DNA from: Chloropicon primus
Lineage: Eukaryota
DNA length: 64,000 nucleotides
Reading direction: 5' to 3'
Assembly (NCBI GenBank): GCA_023205875.1
Contig: CP060755.1
Span: 310,001-374,000 of the forward strand
How positions within the stretch are numbered: the first letter of the stretch is position 1; each line of letters starts with the position of its first letter. Under the pieces are notes generated by a model. That model made no database searches. It had not been told where the DNA came from and worked only from the letters and a program-made list of their open reading frames with translations. The position numbers and the translations under genes were made by a program. Shown piece after piece: positions 2,826 to 50,262 of this stretch.

Positions 2826-3177
2826 CCTCCCGCCGATCCGATCGACTGCCTCGCTCGTGAAGAACGAAGCGAGCGGGGGGGGGAGAAAAAGGGTATATAT
2901 ACGCAAAATTCGCACCTTCCTTTATCATACGTTCATACCTACGTGAAAATACCCGATCCCATCAGAACTCGGAAGTCAAGCGCGTGTGGGCGAGATCAGT
3001 ACTGTGGTTGGTGACAACACGGGAATCTCTCGTGGCGTATGTTCTTTTTTTTTTTTATCTCCAGAGCCCGGATCGACTCTCGCGCCCCGCAATCCATCCA
3101 TCTCCTCGCGAGCGCTCGCGAAGAAACCCACCCAGCCAAGGCCAAAGCCAAAGAGAGATGATGATTCCTTTATTACA

Positions 3178-4359
3178 TCAGACGTCATCAGTGTAGTCGT
3201 CGTCCTCGTCCTCCTCCACGCTGCTTCGTCCGGAGCTCGCGTTCAACTCCTGCTGAAGCCACTGCAAGATGTGAAGGTGGCCTTCTTCATCTGCCGTGTC
3301 ATAAATCTCCTCAGGGTCCCAGGGGCAAGGCGGATCCTGGCTTCGAAGCCACTGCAGAACGTGAAGGTGACCTCCTAGAGCTGCCCCAGAACAAGTCCCC
3401 TCGTCCCAATCACAAGGCGGGTCCTGGCTTCGAGCCCACTTGAGAACATCAAGGTGGCCTCCTTCAGCTGCCCATCCACAAGTCATTTCGTCCCAATCCC
3501 AAGGCGGGTCCTGGCTTCGAGCCCACTTGAGAACATCAAGGTGGCCTCTCAAAGCTGCAGCGTCACGAGTCTCCTCGTTCCAATCACAAGGCGGGTCCTG
3601 GCTTCGGAGCCACTGCAGAACGTGAAGGTGACCTTCTCGAGCTGCAAATTTACAAGTCCACTCGTCCCAATCACAAGGCGGGTCCTGGCTTCGAGCCCAC
3701 TGCAGAACATCAAGGTGACCTCCTTCAGCTGCACCAGCACAAGTCCTCCAGTTCCAATCACAAGGCGGGTCCTGGCTTCGAAGCCACTGCAGAACGTGAA
3801 GGTGACCTCCTAGAGCTGCCCAAGAACAAGTCTCCTCGCCCCAATCGCAAGGCGGGTCCTGGCTCCGAAGCCACTGCAGAACGTGAAGGTGGCCTCCTTT
3901 AGCTGCCTCATAGCCAGTCCACACGTCCCAATCGCAAGGCGGGTCCTGGCTCACCAACCACTCCATCACCTTGATGCTGCCCTGGAAAGCAGCGAGGTAC
4001 ATCAGGTCAGAGTCGTACAAGAAGCTGGAAGACTCGCCATTTCTCCACTTTTTCGATTCTCCCTTCTTCCTTTCGAACGAGCGAAACACCCACTCGAACC
4101 AACCCAAACTGAAGCAAGGCATCTGCTCGAACAACCTCTCTCTCGTCAGGTCCGTCTTCAGAGCAACCCTCGTCAGATCAGAGTTCGCCTCCGTCGCCGT
4201 CACCGCCTCGAGGAACGCCCTGCAGGTCAAGGCGAAGGCGATATGCTCGTAGTCGGGCAGCTGCCTCAAGACCAGGAGCCACAAGACCTCTGGCAGCACC
4301 TCCAACGCATCCCTCCCCTCCACCCTCTGCATCTTGCTCTCCATCGTCTCCTCCATCAT
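3178..4359 (-). CDS. F-box-like plus ankyrin-like repeat protein (about 9 27-aa repeats, WD.xTC.xAA.GGHLxVLQWxRSQDPPC)
   Basis: N-terminal LEVLPEVLWLLVLRQL..FALTCRAF (F-box-like); 81-bp tandem repeats at ~3250-3960; likely start MM at 4359. Confidence 0.85.
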   Translation of the reverse strand: MMEETMESKMQRVEGRDALEVLPEVLWLLVLRQLPDYEHIAFALTCRAFLEAVTATEANSDLTRVALKTDLTRERLFEQMPCFSLGWFEWVFRSFERKKGESKKWRNGESSSFLYDSDLMYLAAFQGSIKVMEWLVSQDPPCDWDVWTGYEAAKGGHLHVLQWLRSQDPPCDWGEETCSWAALGGHLHVLQWLRSQDPPCDWNWRTCAGAAEGGHLDVLQWARSQDPPCDWDEWTCKFAAREGHLHVLQWLRSQDPPCDWNEETRDAAALRGHLDVLKWARSQDPPWDWDEMTCGWAAEGGHLDVLKWARSQDPPCDWDEGTCSGAALGGHLHVLQWLRSQDPPCPWDPEEIYDTADEEGHLHILQWLQQELNASSGRSSVEEDEDDDYTDDV

Positions 4360-4578
4360 GATCGCCCCCAAGCCCCCTCCCTCTCCCGACGCAGCTGCTG
4401 GAAAGCAAGGAGGAGGAGTCTCCTGGTTGCAGGAACCAGGCCTCCTCGCCTCCTGCTTGGCTTCCTCGCCTCCTCCTGCTTGGCTTGCGCTGGGCGTGCT
4501 GTATATAGTATACATGTTTTCCGCCTTTAGCGATGTCGTTCCACGTAGAAATTACGTCTAGGAACGACTAACGTCTCT

Positions 4579-4701
4579 GGGGCTATGGTCTAGTGGTATG
4601 ATTCTCGCTTAGGGCGATTCGATCCTAAGATTCGATCCTAAGAAGTTCATCAACGAGCTATAATCTGCGAGCGGTCCCGGGTTCGATTCTCGGTAGCCCC
4701 C
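4579..4701 (+). tRNA. trnP-AGG: tRNA-Pro(AGG) with 51-nt intron (4615-4665) at canonical position 37/38
   Basis: Acceptor stem GGGGCTA/TAGCCCC, D-arm TGGTCTAGTGGTATGATT, anticodon arm CTCGC-TTAGGG..TGCGAG, T-loop GGTTCGATTC. Confidence 0.92.
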
Positions 4702-4790
4702 TCCCCGTTGAACAACCAAGACGGAAACAACACCGCGGCGAAACAACAGCCGCCTTACCTCTTGCTCCGTGAGACAAGGGTTCTATGAGA

Positions 4791-4896
4791 GACGTTAGTT
4801 ATACAAGGGTCACAACGAGATCGTAACGGCGGAGGACGGCGACTGACGTTAGTTATACAAGGATCACAACGAGATCGTAACGGCGGAGGACGGCGA
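4791..4896. repeat. 54-bp-period tandem duplication upstream of the recombinase ORF
   Basis: gacgttagttatacaagg(g/a)tcacaacgagatcgtaacggcggaggacggcga starts at 4791 and again at 4845 (1 mismatch). Confidence 0.95.
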
Positions 4897-5023
4897 GGAG
4901 GACGGCGAGGAGGTGTGTGACCTGGCGGGAGCTGGAGAGAGAAAGAGAGCCGCCGTAACGCCAGAGCCGCGAACGAGGCGGCCGACGAGTGGGGACGAGA
5001 AGACCACGACCAGAGAGAAAGCG

Positions 5024-7873
5024 ATGAGTTACCTCCTGGAATACTTCGGCTGCTGGTTGCCGACGAAGAAGAGGAGACTGACGAATACTGGGTCGTCATG
5101 TGAAGAAGGGGCTGGTGGCGCCACCCCGGCCGCGGTTCTCCAGGTGGGTGGCACCCAAGGATGGCGGGTGGCGCCCAAGGATTGTGGTGCCAATGTCTCT
5201 GTCTTCACCCACTTGCAGGGCAGCGGGCAGCCGTGCGGCGCGGTGGCACTCGGAACAAGCCTGGACACCAACGCTTGCACAGTGGCCCTGGCGATCTCCG
5301 CGGGACCTCATAGGGAGCGGGAGATGGCCGCCTTCGAGGAGAACGTGGATCCGACGACGCTTCTCAATGCGGATGGACTTATTGCCACTCTTGGCTTCGT
5401 AGACGAATTAGCTGGCCCGCGGCCCACCCTTGCACGCGAGGGTACACGGGCGGAGCGAACTCGCGAGCCTGAGGAGCTGACCCTGGTCCGCGTGGTCCGA
5501 GGCCGTGGCGGAGTCCACCTGGAGCGCGTTGAGGGCTTGAAAGAACTGACCCACTGCATCGTCTTCCTCCGCGAGTCCCTTGCGCAGGAGGGGCTTGGGA
5601 ACAGGCTCGCTGGTCAGGCGGCCACGATCTCAAGCGCGTTGCTCGGCAAAGATCTTCCTAAACAGGTGAAAGCATTTCGTTTCGTGGAGCTTGGGACCGC
5701 CAGCCGCTCGCGATGCCTCAAGGACCGCAAAGTTCTTACGAAAGCTCTTGCCCTTGCGAAGGAGAAGGGCGAGCCTTGCGCGCTTCTTGTAGCTGCCTTG
5801 TCGCGATTGTCGAGACGGTCACAAGCTGACGAGGACCTCGACTACCTTGCTGAGCGCGCAGGGCAGGCCTCTATACTGGCGTGTATCCCGACGTCCCATG
5901 CAGCAGCTTTGATTGGGGAGGAAAAGAAAGAGGAGCTCAAAAAGTACATGAGCAAGGCTGCAAGCACCTCGGACGGGCACGCCGTGTACTCGGCGTCGCA
6001 CTGCATGCTCAAGTCCGGCGCCACCCGTTGTTCTGTAGCATCGGGCCAACACACTTCTGAGGAACTTTGTCTCCTCGTCGAACACGTCGAGCACGTCCTG
6101 AGGCACAAGCTGGAGAATCTGGAGAAGCCGGGGGAGCAGAAGCACGGGAAACCCCTTCTCCTCGTAGGTATTGCCCGTACGTCGCCTGGAACTGACGTCG
6201 CCAAGTCTACTTCGATATATGTCCAACGGTGCCTACTCCTCCACGTCCTCCTCAAGGTGCGCGACAACCTTCAGAAGGATGTTGCGCTAAGCGGGAAACT
6301 GCCGGTGATTGAAATCACAATTGGGACCTTTGCAGAGAAGTGTGGAGGCTCGACCTCGGAGGAGGCTGCCGTCCAAGAATGGGTGAAGAAGGTCTGCGAC
6401 GAGGGCAAATACGCAGGGGGCGTTCTACTCTGCACCCGTGCAGATCGGCTTACAAGGGAGCTTGCGACACTCGGGACGCTCTTGGAAAGGTGCTGTAAGG
6501 CGAACATAGCAACGGTTGCGTGCTTGACAGAAGTGGATGCCGTCGTCACCGAGGAGAGACACGTTCAAGAGGCCGTAGCCCAGGTTCTCGCTGGAGATGA
6601 GGAGTATCTTCTTGGAAAGCGCTTTGTGGAGCAACGGGCGAGTGATCTCGTCCGCGCATGGAAGAACCAACCCACAGTTCGTGTGCTCGTCGCTGCTTGT
6701 TCCATCACGGAAGCGAACTACGACATCATTCTTCGCGAGGAGCACATGGAGTTCCTGGAGACCTACAGGCAATACTGCCACGTTCACTCCGTGAGGGACG
6801 AGTTGTTTGAAAACCGTGATGGACACGGCTTGGATGAAGACGCATTGAGCAGAGTCTTTGAGTACTTTGCGGATGCACTAAAGGGAGAACATGTCGATGT
6901 CGTGTTTGAGAATGAATGTTTCCCAGAAACCGCGATCTCTGTGACTCAAAAAGATTTCTTCGAATGCCCCTGCGCTGGTAAATGCTCTCGCAAGTCGTCC
7001 AGGACAACAGGCACCGCGAACACCGCTCCAGCACATACTCGATGCCTTTGTGCTTGTGACATGTGCAAGAGGAGTCGTCCTTGCATTCTGGTGGACAGCG
7101 ACGCCGAGGACGGCGGGGAGAGGGAGAGAGAGCTTCGCAAATTTGATGCCGCTGCATGTCCCTGTGGACCTTGCAGCAGCAGCCCCTCGAGCACTGGTAC
7201 GACAAGGAAGACACAGGCCAAGACCAACACGAAAGGGAAGAGGAAGGCCAAAGCAAGGAAGCCGATGAAGGAGTTTCCTCGACTTCCTACTACAGACGGT
7301 ACTCAAACCCTGCGCTGCATCTGCTGTGATGCTTTTCGTCGCCCTGAGTGCCCCTTGGTCAAAACAGGAGCTCTGACCCCGGTTCCTGGGGAGGAACGTG
7401 ATCGAGGTGGGCACAAACCCAATTACCTCTTGTCGAACTGGTGCTGGTACTGCCATCGTTTCATATTCAAAAGCGGCTTTAACCAGTGGTGTTCGTTCGG
7501 TTGCTTCTTGAAAGCCACGAAGTTCGTGGACAAGAAGGAGCTTTGGGACATGAGCAAGGAAATTGGCATGACACAACTGAAGAACACGATTGGCTTCTGG
7601 TTTTGTGTTCCGTGTACAAAGAAACCTGAGTCCGAGGAAGCCTTGATCGAGAAGATCCCCTCGATCCCCTTGATCCCAACCAAGGGTTCAAGGGGCTTGA
7701 GGTGCTTGTCCTGCAGTCATAACGATTGCAAAATCGGCAAGGGGTACAAGGAGAACGCAGAAGGAGGCGGCGTGAACGTTGGCTCCGGCCGGCAGAAGTC
7801 CGAGAACAGAAAGGCCAAAGAGGTAGTGATCCCGCATCCAATGCTCGTCAACATGATGCTACAGGACTCCTAA
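5024..7873 (+). CDS. Large protein with two tandem serine-recombinase (resolvase/invertase) catalytic domains and a Cys-rich C-terminus
   Basis: Domain 1: CIVFLRES..GLGNRLAGQAATI..FVELGTAS..DRKVLTKALALAK..LLVAALSRLSR. Domain 2: VGIARTS..STSIYVQ..FAEKCGG..VLLCTRADRLTRE. Many CxxC/CxC clusters follow. Intronless; first ATG 5024. Confidence 0.75.
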   Translation: MSYLLEYFGCWLPTKKRRLTNTGSSCEEGAGGATPAAVLQVGGTQGWRVAPKDCGANVSVFTHLQGSGQPCGAVALGTSLDTNACTVALAISAGPHREREMAAFEENVDPTTLLNADGLIATLGFVDELAGPRPTLAREGTRAERTREPEELTLVRVVRGRGGVHLERVEGLKELTHCIVFLRESLAQEGLGNRLAGQAATISSALLGKDLPKQVKAFRFVELGTASRSRCLKDRKVLTKALALAKEKGEPCALLVAALSRLSRRSQADEDLDYLAERAGQASILACIPTSHAAALIGEEKKEELKKYMSKAASTSDGHAVYSASHCMLKSGATRCSVASGQHTSEELCLLVEHVEHVLRHKLENLEKPGEQKHGKPLLLVGIARTSPGTDVAKSTSIYVQRCLLLHVLLKVRDNLQKDVALSGKLPVIEITIGTFAEKCGGSTSEEAAVQEWVKKVCDEGKYAGGVLLCTRADRLTRELATLGTLLERCCKANIATVACLTEVDAVVTEERHVQEAVAQVLAGDEEYLLGKRFVEQRASDLVRAWKNQPTVRVLVAACSITEANYDIILREEHMEFLETYRQYCHVHSVRDELFENRDGHGLDEDALSRVFEYFADALKGEHVDVVFENECFPETAISVTQKDFFECPCAGKCSRKSSRTTGTANTAPAHTRCLCACDMCKRSRPCILVDSDAEDGGERERELRKFDAAACPCGPCSSSPSSTGTTRKTQAKTNTKGKRKAKARKPMKEFPRLPTTDGTQTLRCICCDAFRRPECPLVKTGALTPVPGEERDRGGHKPNYLLSNWCWYCHRFIFKSGFNQWCSFGCFLKATKFVDKKELWDMSKEIGMTQLKNTIGFWFCVPCTKKPESEEALIEKIPSIPLIPTKGSRGLRCLSCSHNDCKIGKGYKENAEGGGVNVGSGRQKSENRKAKEVVIPHPMLVNMMLQDS

Positions 7874-7920
7874 GCCGATCCTAAAGACTATCCTAATCCT
7901 AATCCCCAAAAAGCAATCCT

Positions 7921-8230
7921 AAAGCTGAAATATTCTATCCTCCTCCACCACACTATGTATGTCTCCGTTGACCGCCGGCACATCGTTCGTTCGTTCGTTC
8001 GTTCCATCCTCAGCCAATCCTGGCTGGCGGTCCTGGCTTCGAAGCCACTGCAGAATTTCGAGGTGACCTCCTTCAGCTGCCCAAGAACAAGTATCCTTGT
8101 CCCAATCACAAGGCGGGTCCTGGCTTCGAGCCCACTGCAGAACATCAAGGTGACCTCCTTCAGCTGCACCAGCACAAGTCCTCCAGTTCCAATCACAAGG
8201 CGGGTCCTGACTTCGAGCCCACTGCAGAAC
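7921..8230 (-). pseudogene. 5'-truncated ankyrin-repeat gene fragment (~2.5 repeats plus tail), paralogous to 3178-4359
   Basis: 8101-8209 is identical to 3666-3774; reads VLQWARSQDPPCDWNWRTCAGAAEGGHLDV...LRSQD; no in-frame start upstream. Confidence 0.85.
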
Positions 8231-8777
8231 CTATAATAGGGAACCTATAATAGGTTACGTGATCTTCAACACATCCTCAGGCTCCTCAGCTCGCACCTCA
8301 GCAGCAGCAGGACCTTCCCTTGCCCAAGCGTCCAGCCCATCCTTGATGGATGGATGACCACGAGCCACGGCACTAGCCAGACAACCTTGTGACCTTAAGG
8401 TGGTCCAACCTTGTCCCTCTCCCTCTTCCCGGGGAACAATAATAATAATAATAATAAGACGTTACGCCACGTCTTCTTCTTCTTAGGACACGACGACGAT
8501 CCCCAAAGCAGCCAGCACTTTGCGCTTCGTCGGTCGTCGGGGTTCGGTTCATCCAAGGTGCTGGTGCTGCAGCTGTCCTCTCGTCAATCCGCCACCGCGA
8601 AACCTCAGCCACAAACGCCCCAAGAATCTCCCACCAAATTTCATCATTGATCTCGTAACGGGGGGGGGGTTCAGGCGCTCCTGCTGCCAAGGCGCGAGCG
8701 AGCGAGAGTCGGCCGTCTCCGTCGGCCACAGTCAGTCAGTCAGTCCTCCTCCTCCCTCCTCTTTCTCCGTCGTCGTC

Positions 8778-27955: not shown

Positions 27956-27991
27956 TTTTTAGGGTTTTAGGGTTTTAGGTTTTTAGGTTTT
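27956..27991 (+). repeat. Short interstitial telomere-like repeat (TTTTAGGG / TTTTTAGG x4)
   Basis: tttttagggttttagggttttaggtttttaggtttt. Confidence 0.7.
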
Positions 27992-28271
27992 AAATGGGAA
28001 TTTTTGTTCTGGCCTTATCAGATATTTAATATTACTGGAATTGTCATTGGTCAGTCAGCGGGGAGGGACGACCCCAGAAGCGACGAGGAAGGAAGCGACG
28101 CGGAGAGTGGGAAGCAAGAGTGTTGCGAGTGGGGGATGGGATTGTTCTGCTTTGAGGTTCTCACCGCACCTTGGAGGGGCGACGTTTCTTCGAGGGGAGG
28201 GGAAGAAATCTAGAAATCTTTTGCAGAGCAAGGGCGTGACCCTGCCGGTGGTTGGGCTTCGGGTGGCCACG

Positions 28272-48165: not shown

Positions 48166-50171
48166 CAGACCAATTTTGTGCATGGAGGAAAGCACTGGCG
48201 ATGGCGAGGATGTTGTCCGAGCCGTTATCGTCGCGGGGCACTTCCATACTGCATTTGGGGCAGGACAAAACTCCGTACTGGGGACGTCCCTTCTTTGATG
48301 GTGGTCCGTTTCCTCGGCTTCTATCACTCTTGTGCACTCTCCGCAGCGCAGTGGAGATGTTCTTCTGAGAGCATGCTGCGCACATCTTGGAGGTGTTGTA
48401 TTCATCGACGAAGAAGAATCTCCCTGGTGTGGTCTTCGTCACCAAAAACCTTTTGAGCCCGATGCAAGGCCCGGGAGGGCGTCCCCTGATGCCAGAGGGG
48501 AAGTTTGCGGCTCCGCAGAAGACGATGTGTGACGCCGTCGGGAAGAGTTTGCTTGCTATGAACTCCATAGTTCGCTGCTTTCGCCCAAAAGTCTCCAACC
48601 CTTTTCGACGCCAGCGCCGTTGCCCCAAAAAAATCGATGGCGTTGGAGAGGAAGGTGAGCCGGGTCCCAATCGCCGCCTGGAGGCGATCTACACTTGTGA
48701 GCTTCAGAGAAATGGCGCGGTCGTTCAATCTCTGTTGGAGATTGTTGGGGGCTCTGCTCAGCCACTGGTGTGCCAAAATATTCCTCTTCGTGAAACCACA
48801 GCGGTCGCGGTAAGCGGAGAGGTGAAGAGAAAAGGTCCTCTTCCTCCCCCTCTCCAGAATGTTCGCGTAGACGACAAAAATTCGGCCGGGATCAACGCCC
48901 ACGGTGTTCCGGGGATCGAACTGAGAAGGCTTGGTGGCACACCGCTCCCCTTGGCCTATATAGTTGTTGTCGGGACGAGCGAGGATCACCTCTTCGACAA
49001 CGACCACGACGCTGAGGCCATCGGTTCGAAAGTGCCTAGCGAATGCCTTGGTACGTCCATTCGTGTGGCCCTTCTTGGCGATGTTGTTCACCTTCTTGGT
49101 GAAAATCTTCTCCCACCCACGGCCACCATCATAGCCCCAGAGTTCCAGGCAAGATCGCGAGACATTGATCATTGGATACTGCACCCGGCAGACAGGCACC
49201 AGAGTGAAACGCTTGATCGGAAGGTCCGAGGCCTCTACCGTTTTGAGCATCATATACCTGAACACGACCATGTTTCTCTCTTGCTCCGCGGGGTCGAGAA
49301 CGTTGTCGGTGCCGTGCATAAAGTCTGCAACGCCAAAGCCCTGAACGAGGGCCAGCTCGTTGTGGTAGTGTTGAACGAGGTCGGGGCTCCGGGGCTGCGA
49401 CTCGCTCAAAAGGGCTGCTCGGAGAGCGGCAGCCTCGGATTTGTTCAGTTGGTACTTTGCTCTCAGGTATTGCTTCATGTGATTGAAGGTCCCGTACTTG
49501 AGGAAGTTTGACCAATTCGTCCTGAGAACTTGTGCAGCTTCCGTGATGACATGCGACAGGAGCGCCCGCGATGGCAGACGCAGAGAGGTCTCGGCAGCTG
49601 TGGCGGCCTGAACCAACGCCGCCATGGATGCCTGGAGCAATGTCCACTCCTGTGACGTTGGTTCCCTCGAATTGGGCGTGTGGGAGACGGTGCGGAGGTA
49701 GTGACCTATCGAAACCCGATCCATCGCTGGAACACACCTCCAAAACCTCCTCTTGAGGAGTTGGATGTCCGCCACCGGCCCCCCCTCCCGCTCAGCCCTG
49801 AGTTGATTGAGCTCAGTCACCATCTCTCCGCACCGACGGTGAAAGGTTTCGAGATCAGCAGAAGCCCCGGGCAGTTCCCCAAGCCGACGAGCATGGTGGA
49901 GGGCCATCAACACCGTGCCGAGATGGGTTATCAACCCCATTCTTCTTGAGGCATCCTCCAATTCGACCCCAAGGCTGTCCCGCAACCTGGGCTGGAGAGC
50001 TGAATGGAGACCGATCTTATACGTCCTAAAAATTTTTTTCTTCTTCCCCTTCTTCTCCTTCTCCTTCTCCTTCTTCCCCTTCCTCCTCTTTGAATGGGAT
50101 CGGCGAGGAGAACGCGAACCACGTAGACGCTTGGCAGTAGGACGTGAGGTCGAAGGGCCGTCGGAGGTCAT
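48122..50171 (-). mobile_element. Fanzor (eukaryotic TnpB-like RuvC nuclease, Fanzor1-like) gene with one frameshift near 48623-48633
   Basis: FRTDGLSV, RuvC-I VGVDPG, bridge-helix-like WRRKGLETFGRKQR, RuvC-II VDEYNTSKMC, CxxC..CxxC, RuvC-III RDDNGSDNI; basic NLS-like N-terminus. Confidence 0.88.
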
Positions 50172-50262
50172 GGTGTCGAAGTAGAGTTAATGTGGAAGTG
50201 CCCAGCCCCCCTCCCTCCCCCCCTCTCTCCTCTCCTCTCCTCTCCTCTCTTTTTTTGATGTT

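Follow-up and report, generated by a model that had tools for sequence, protein, structure and literature searches.

Could one eukaryotic protein that carries two serine recombinase domains in tandem be the transposase of a mobile element? The question is raised by a 64,000-nucleotide stretch of the genome of Chloropicon primus, a tiny green alga of the sea (contig CP060755.1, positions 310,001 to 374,000; hereafter the window, in whose own numbering coordinates are given). In it, a single uninterrupted open reading frame (ORF) of 949 amino acids occupies positions 5024..7873 of the forward strand. An original prediction, made from the sequence without database searches, described the product as two tandem resolvase-type domains with a Cys-rich tail and ascribed it to either an undescribed mobile element or a domesticated recombinase. 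We find that the ORF fills most of an approximately 3.3-kb segment (4731..8010, forward strand) that is probably a mobile element. On balance, we favor the view that this segment represents a new family of eukaryotic serine recombinase DNA transposons, with the tandem-domain protein as the predicted transposase.

Two serine recombinase domains in one ORF

The ORF was defined by ORF calling, Pfam matches, and composition, and the motifs named in the original prediction all lie where it had placed them: FLRES with Ser185 at nucleotide 5576, LSRLSR with Arg261 at 5804 and Arg264 beyond it, GIARTS with Ser387 at 6182, ADRLTR with Asp474 at 6443, and KGKRKAKARK at 7232. Scanned against the Pfam family PF00239 (cut-off 23.3 bits), the protein matches in two stretches with a total of 40.5 bits (E 3.7e-10). 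The two segments, which the prediction had proposed scanning separately, each match on their own, with only domain 2 (D2) over the cut-off at 24.7 bits (E 2.8e-5). A profile-profile comparison (hhalign) with canonical serine recombinases, aligned from sequences in viral contigs, gave scores of 30.9 for domain 1 (D1) and 28.3 for D2, against 13.9 and 15.6 for the best of 30 column-shuffled profiles each. With both scores above all shuffles, the predicted tandem pair of serine recombinase domains holds up. Compared with each other, D1 and D2 score 10.8, inside the shuffle range, so a recent internal duplication is unsupported as their origin. Resolvase clusters were also the nearest neighbors of residues 150–630 in the ESM Atlas (0.92; 27 of 30 hits), with 158–164 of 256 features in common, where typical same-family hits share 170. 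Sequence searches of the PDB returned chance hits only.

The crucial residues of Tn3 resolvase are given as Y6, R8, S10, D36, R68, and R71 (PMC2794168), and each domain retains five of these six (R8, S10, D36 as Glu, R68, and R71). The active-site candidates of D1 (5549..5998, forward strand) are R183, S185, Q198, E222, R235, R261, and R264, and a candidate E helix carries a conserved TS.G motif. Those of D2 (6155..6793, forward strand) are R385, S387, Q401, E438, D474, R475, and R478. Judged by these residues, both domains are probably catalytic.

An AlphaFold model built from a six-sequence alignment shows a resolvase-like order of strands and helices in both domains, with a predicted local distance difference test score (pLDDT) of about 57–84 in the D1 core; modeling from the single sequence reached a pLDDT of 36.8. 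Sin and integrases are the best structural matches of the D1 model. In Foldseek the top match is Sin recombinase (probability 1.00, E 4e-3), with none at E 0.001, and in VIA, which covered D1 only, the top 20 rows are all serine recombinases (best Z 7.0, root-mean-square deviation 3.8, 111 residues aligned).

Dispersed copies with common ends

All seven hits of our first protein search were C. primus proteins, and a cluster look-up with a profile search extended the family to 18 annotated proteins from two strains, placed by locus tag or name on chromosomes 2, 3, 4, 5, 6, 9, 15, 16, and 17. The approximately 3.3-kb segment occurs in about 8–10 copies scattered over many chromosomes, in answer to the suggestion that the genome be searched for more of them. 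Four whole copies in strain CCMP1205 are 93–99% identical to the window protein, and whole copies differ at 1 of 896 sites in D2, 17 of 600 in D1, and 52 of 1396 in the tail. In supplementary file S1 of PMC12301720, the family makes up the orthogroups OG0000040 and OG0000045, which are specific to C. primus and whose members are all but one called hypothetical. Pieces of the element are fused into two unrelated host gene models, an FAD-oxidoreductase and a ferrochelatase (P0006 and P0007). Small shares of the stretch were found in the seawater metagenome runs X8–X17.

Contigs of other copies part from the window before 4735 on the left and beyond 7996/8010 on the right, continuing into differing flanks, and contig depth is single-copy outside the element and about 8–10x inside; these departures and the depth change define the approximate extent of the window copy. 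Flanks were compared through 30-nt loose ends of contigs. On the left, the last nine letters are common and the letters before them differ, whereas on the right a further 10 letters are common before the sequences diverge, and the window copy lacks these ~10 nt. The flank alignment by which the prediction had proposed to define the ends thus places common ends on different flanks. The loose-end consensuses, from 30 nt only, read ..ACCGAGG.. on the left and ..ACGTCG on the right; IS607, for comparison, has a GG dinucleotide as its crossover site at either terminus and leaves the target unduplicated. The two ends are unrelated in sequence, and no terminal inverted repeats (TIRs) were found at them. 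The left end has direct repeats (4724..4896, forward strand) consisting of GAAACAACA twice (4724 and 4740) and a 54-nt tandem duplication (4791–4896); the right end (7878..7922, forward strand) has four ATCCTAA, a candidate recombinase-binding motif that is also found at the terminus of other copies. ATCCTAA has seven matches in the window against 2.6 expected, four of them at the right end and two in the intron of a neighboring tRNA-Pro gene. Hairpins at the ends do not exceed chance (z −1.0, −1.9, and +0.6), and an Rfam scan detected no RNA family inside the element, in which about 290 nt precede the ORF and 140 nt follow it. No joint of the right end to the left end, as in a circle, is among those listed, which is uninformative because contigs drop rare forms and the window copy lacks its terminal ~10 nt.

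A 440-bp interval (6164..6603, forward strand) is deleted in a subfamily of copies, with the joint 6163–6604 present in runs X1 and X5. The deletion shows a 3-nt GTA microhomology, shifts the frame, and removes most of D2. Relative to flanks at depth 137 in contigs of DNA run X1, depth, which is a rough guide only, is 10.1x over D1, 4.2x over D2, 4.0x for the joint, and 7.8x over the part behind the deletion. We read this as about four whole copies, four sharing the deletion, and two 5′ fragments. The C termini of P0008, P0010, P0011, and P0030 are the predicted deletion read-through peptide. Because one read-through C terminus recurs at three loci (two on chromosome 5 and one on chromosome 6), the deleted copies appear to have multiplied after the deletion. 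Interpretation of the 440-bp skip as an intron was ruled out, as GT-AG occurs in no register and the skip is present in a DNA run.

Dispersed near-identical copies, common ends on differing flanks, and the shared-deletion subfamily support mobility. Together with strain-specific annotated loci, they sustain the mobile element of the original prediction, whereas its other suggestion, a domesticated recombinase, is disfavored.

Distant relatives of the tandem protein

A phmmer search with residues 153–622 against 1.84 billion representatives found five proteins at E up to 0.001, namely one C. primus copy and P0023–P0026 (ENA and Logan/JGI). Longer proteins were searched with a profile, which brought in P0031, a marine JGI protein of 1,139 amino acids with 26% identity. 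It keeps LRSS..Q..ELSS..DR..ALSRATR, the TS.G linker, and GRTSP..SITLQ..TRADRVTR, with equivalents of R8, S10, D36 (as Glu), R68, and R71 in both domains. P0024 and P0026 retain D1 and the beginning of D2. The RxS and RxxR residues, on whose conservation among homologs the original prediction had been staked, are thus kept in distant relatives.

The tail of the window protein (6917..7729, forward strand), a candidate DNA-binding region, contains 25 Cys within residues 632–902, which we count in eight clusters, as had been predicted approximately. Its CxCxxC motif (residues 676–681) is retained in P0031, in which the remaining tail is replaced by an AP2 match at the C terminus (E 0.0018, below the Pfam cut-off). 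Because two domains are present in the distant P0031 and the tail differs (Cys versus AP2), the tandem design appears to be old and the tail exchangeable. No relatives were confirmed in viral contigs, metagenome contigs, genome contigs, plasmids, or phages.

To place the domains, we built a tree from 55 catalytic domains, sorted into classes according to the length of their ORFs, with up to 18 per class drawn from 39, 60, and 13. Sequences too short to include were P0023, P0025, and the D2 of P0024, which is partial. A 100/100 clade of 17 IS607-like rows excludes both D1 and D2, each of which makes up a separate group on a long branch; the tree leaves the deeper position of both groups unplaced.

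Comparison with known recombinase systems

IS607 and IS607EU resemble the window element in having a serine recombinase as the likely transposase, also in eukaryotes (PMC6188088, PMC3673617, PMC13565253), and in having unrelated ends with short direct repeats and no TIRs. IS607 is described as excising as a circle and inserting with little target specificity (PMC4058570; PMC6188088). However, IS607 TnpA is a protein of ~200 amino acids with an N-terminal MerR-type helix-turn-helix (HTH) and one catalytic domain, accompanied by TnpB/Fanzor2, whereas the window element encodes 949 amino acids with two catalytic domains and a C-terminal Cys-rich tail (AP2 in P0031), without TnpB. No Pfam family was detected at E up to 1 in residues 1–179, where the IS607 HTH would lie, or in the last 437 residues (513–949), and there is no NCBIfam IS607 match. 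A second ORF for TnpB/Fanzor2 is absent from the element, which has no room for it beside the ORF, and of the three serine recombinase classes, IS607 gives the poorest profile match. With no N-terminal HTH, no TnpB, and a position outside the IS607 clade, membership in IS607 was ruled out.

Small resolvases and invertases (Tn3/gamma-delta, Sin, Hin/Gin) share the catalytic fold and residues; they are the best class for D1 by profile, and Sin is the top match in Foldseek and VIA. These enzymes comprise one domain and a C-terminal HTH in ~190 amino acids and use res or inversion sites, whereas the window protein has two domains, long insertions, and no HTH_7 hit. Large serine recombinases, including TnpX of Tn4451, also carry a large Cys-containing region behind the catalytic domain, and TnpX transposes through a circle. 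Some large serine recombinases are reported to promote translocation (PMC6188088). The window protein differs from them in its second catalytic domain and eukaryotic host, and residues 513–949 gave no match to PF07508 (Recombinase) or zinc-ribbon domains. Cryptons are likewise described as single-gene eukaryotic elements thought to move via a circle (PMC13565253) but use tyrosine rather than serine chemistry and have an unrelated fold.

According to a September 2026 review (PMC13565253), no eukaryotic DNA transposon other than IS607EU is known to have a serine recombinase, and the eukaryotic serine enzymes described in PMC3627910, PMC3673617, and PMC10711439 are of IS607 type only. No description of a tandem-recombinase family was found in the literature searched, whose coverage stops short of Repbase and most subscription journals. 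Since the family is not IS607, it would, if our reading is true, be a second type of serine recombinase transposon in eukaryotes.

Proposed mechanism

Strand exchange by characterized serine recombinases proceeds by rotation within an assembly of four separate subunits of one domain each. Their tetramer has been divided into cutting dimers, whose subunits lie on the same duplex, or rotating dimers, whose subunits lie on different duplexes and turn together (PMC4058570). By analogy with IS607, recombination between the element ends would excise a circle, which would then be inserted elsewhere through cuts staggered by 2 bp and a rotation of subunits by 180 degrees. Geometry suggests that two chains could supply the four active sites. 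We favor an assignment in which D2 would cleave the element junction and D1 the target, because the putative DNA-binding tail comes after D2, whereas the E helix of D1 leads into no DNA-binding domain. Linked in this way, D1 and D2 would form a rotating pair, with one chain holding both the element DNA and the landing site. This arrangement is favored because the D1–D2 link would be unstrained in a rotating dimer and strained in a cutting dimer, and, given that both domains are catalytic, we give it about an even chance. Excision needs cuts at both ends and may use the same complex.

A broader reading, which we put forward tentatively and would rate at less than even, is that of a new eukaryotic DNA transposon superfamily spread across unrelated marine eukaryotes. 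Its transposase would be a natural single-chain half of the synapse, with one active domain for the element junction, the other for the target, and an interchangeable tail of Cys clusters or AP2. If true, it would be the first natural serine recombinase with two active sites. Two non-identical active sites in one natural chain would make the rotation model and the division of labor between donor and target directly testable, and the tandem protein could be a scaffold for integrases working in the eukaryotic nucleus.

Weighing the evidence and the alternatives

Several observations weigh against a new transposon family with two active domains. Scanned alone, D1 reaches 20.3 bits (E 6.5e-4), under the Pfam cut-off. 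The Y6 position is replaced in both domains, by F181 in D1 and I383 in D2; in Tn3 resolvase, Y6F lowers cleavage to 0.0002 of control, and Bxb1 has Val at this position (PMC2794168). In the D1 of relatives, this residue is Tyr in P0023 and His in P0024, P0026, and P0031. D1 further has S260 in place of D67, and an Arg equivalent to R45 is missing from D2; such losses have milder reported effects in Tn3 (PMC2794168). The domains are therefore "apparently intact," as first described, in five of six key residues each, but not at these positions. The modeling proposed in the original prediction recovered a resolvase fold with Sin matches for D1, but D2 only at a pLDDT below 50, so that the D2 fold rests on sequence, and the VIA Z score of D1 is moderate, a value of a kind that the tool itself labels common. 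No match to PF00239 at E up to 1 was returned for P0024, P0026, or P0031, and the ESM Atlas offered only unrelated leads for P0031 (at 0.76). There is no clear purifying selection on the ORF, as 33 of 44 listed nucleotide variants change an amino acid; the list is a selection and includes variants from whole as well as broken copies. Finally, the strain differences (02p16300 annotated in CCMP1205 only; 03g27050, 14g72430, and 16g76820 in RCC138 only) are those of gene annotation and locus-tag order, not DNA, and no empty site was seen.

The same transposon might operate differently, with D1 and D2 fused into a cutting dimer that acts at a single asymmetric site, each domain cutting one strand. 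The unrelated element ends would suit such a site, and a D1–D2 likeness no better than chance is what specialized half-site partners would show. A covalent link across the rotation interface would, however, have to tolerate a 180-degree turn, judging from the tetramer geometry in PMC4058570, and the candidate DNA-binding region follows D2 only. We consider this arrangement, which is the pseudo-dimer of the original prediction, unlikely, and infer that its geometry is the less likely of the two. Slightly less probable still is an ordinary tetramer of four chains in which D2 alone is catalytic and D1 has a role in regulation or synapsis. In favor of this, the full DRLxR, the higher Pfam score, and near-invariance among copies belong to D2, and D1 lacks D67 and is more variable. 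Yet P0024, P0026, and P0031 keep the D1 equivalents of R8, S10, D36 (as Glu), R45, R68, and R71 at about 26–29% identity, and because of this a non-catalytic D1 is hard to explain.

In another alternative, the copies form a host gene family or a domesticated one, and segmental duplication or gene conversion, rather than their own enzyme, has spread them. This would account for the eight loci that, by locus-tag order, seem common to both strains, for the location of copies among ankyrin repeat genes, themselves highly repeated, and for a weak hint of transcription. It fits poorly with similarity that ends at defined points with different flanks, with one common inactivating deletion in half of the copies, and with the absence of the family from the C. 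roscoffensis orthogroups in the supplement of PMC12301720. Nor does the GC content at third codon positions of the ORF (0.65) resemble that of six adjacent host ORFs (0.79–0.96), although the ankyrin gene is also low (0.64). We regard this origin as improbable. Least credible, and very improbable in our estimate, is that the gene is carried by a different element, for example of Fanzor or viral type, as its passenger or resolvase, or that it is a far-diverged IS607. C. primus is reported to have TIR elements with Fanzor2 (PMC10711439), but the present element has no TIRs and no space for a second gene, and confirmed relatives are lacking in the viral contigs, phages, and plasmids searched; descent from IS607 is opposed by the missing NCBIfam match and by the position of both domains outside that clade. 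The tandem-recombinase transposon remains our preferred interpretation.

Gene models and genomic neighborhood

The ORF had been called intronless, which is correct for the uninterrupted frame but not for the public model P0016 (HOP50_02g11860), which lacks 57 amino acids of the window protein, matching a GT-AG pair at 7197–7367. This in-frame 171-nt interval is removed in four RCC138 gene models and retained in CCMP1205 models, and no spliced joint across it is among the read-contig joints listed. It carries one Cys cluster and the basic patch KGKRKAKARK (7232..7261, forward strand), which resembles a nuclear localization signal. Transcription is weakly hinted at by three runs guessed to be RNA, which span most of the ORF and not 8242–8575, a part that the DNA run does cover. 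The N-terminal region (about residues 55–175; 5186..5548, forward strand) has no Pfam family, ends in a modeled β-hairpin (pLDDT ~75–82), and aligns to P0023 and weakly to P0031, P0024, and P0026.

Outside the element, a tRNA-Pro(AGG) gene (4579..4701, forward strand) ends ~30 nt before the left end. Its 51-nt intron contains the two ATCCTAA in a 13-nt tandem duplication, and the gene is missed without an intron search. The left flank of one other copy has a tRNA-like T-loop; because this flank comprises only 30 nt and the motif could be telobox-like, we make no claim of tRNA targeting. An isolated 5S rRNA gene (2925–3043, forward strand; Rfam 101 bits) is the other of two Pol III genes less than 1.8 kb from the left end. 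Other copies have telomere-like letters, CCTAAAAA at the right terminus and TTTAGGTTTAG in a left-end variant; the telomere unit is given as TTTTTAGG in PMC12301720, and CCTAAAAA is its complement.

An F-box/ankyrin gene with 87-nt repeats lies at 3178–4515 (reverse strand), and a fragment of those repeats lies at 8029–8230 (reverse strand), close by on the right side of the element. In X1, one contig connects the left part of the element (4923) to the ankyrin-gene repeats, and one right flank resembles them, so that element copies may cluster with this repeat family. Farther away, a 589-residue ORF (48402–50171, reverse strand) carries FRTDG and GVDPG motifs, which we take to be Fanzor/TnpB-like, and has no Pfam or PHROGs match. 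A 14-nt inverted repeat brackets it (48233–48246 and 50193–50206), and the segment 48233–50206 may be a TIR-bounded Fanzor element as in PMC10711439. At 27956–27993, the window also has about five TTTTAGG(G) units, a short tract that resembles telomere sequence at an interstitial position.

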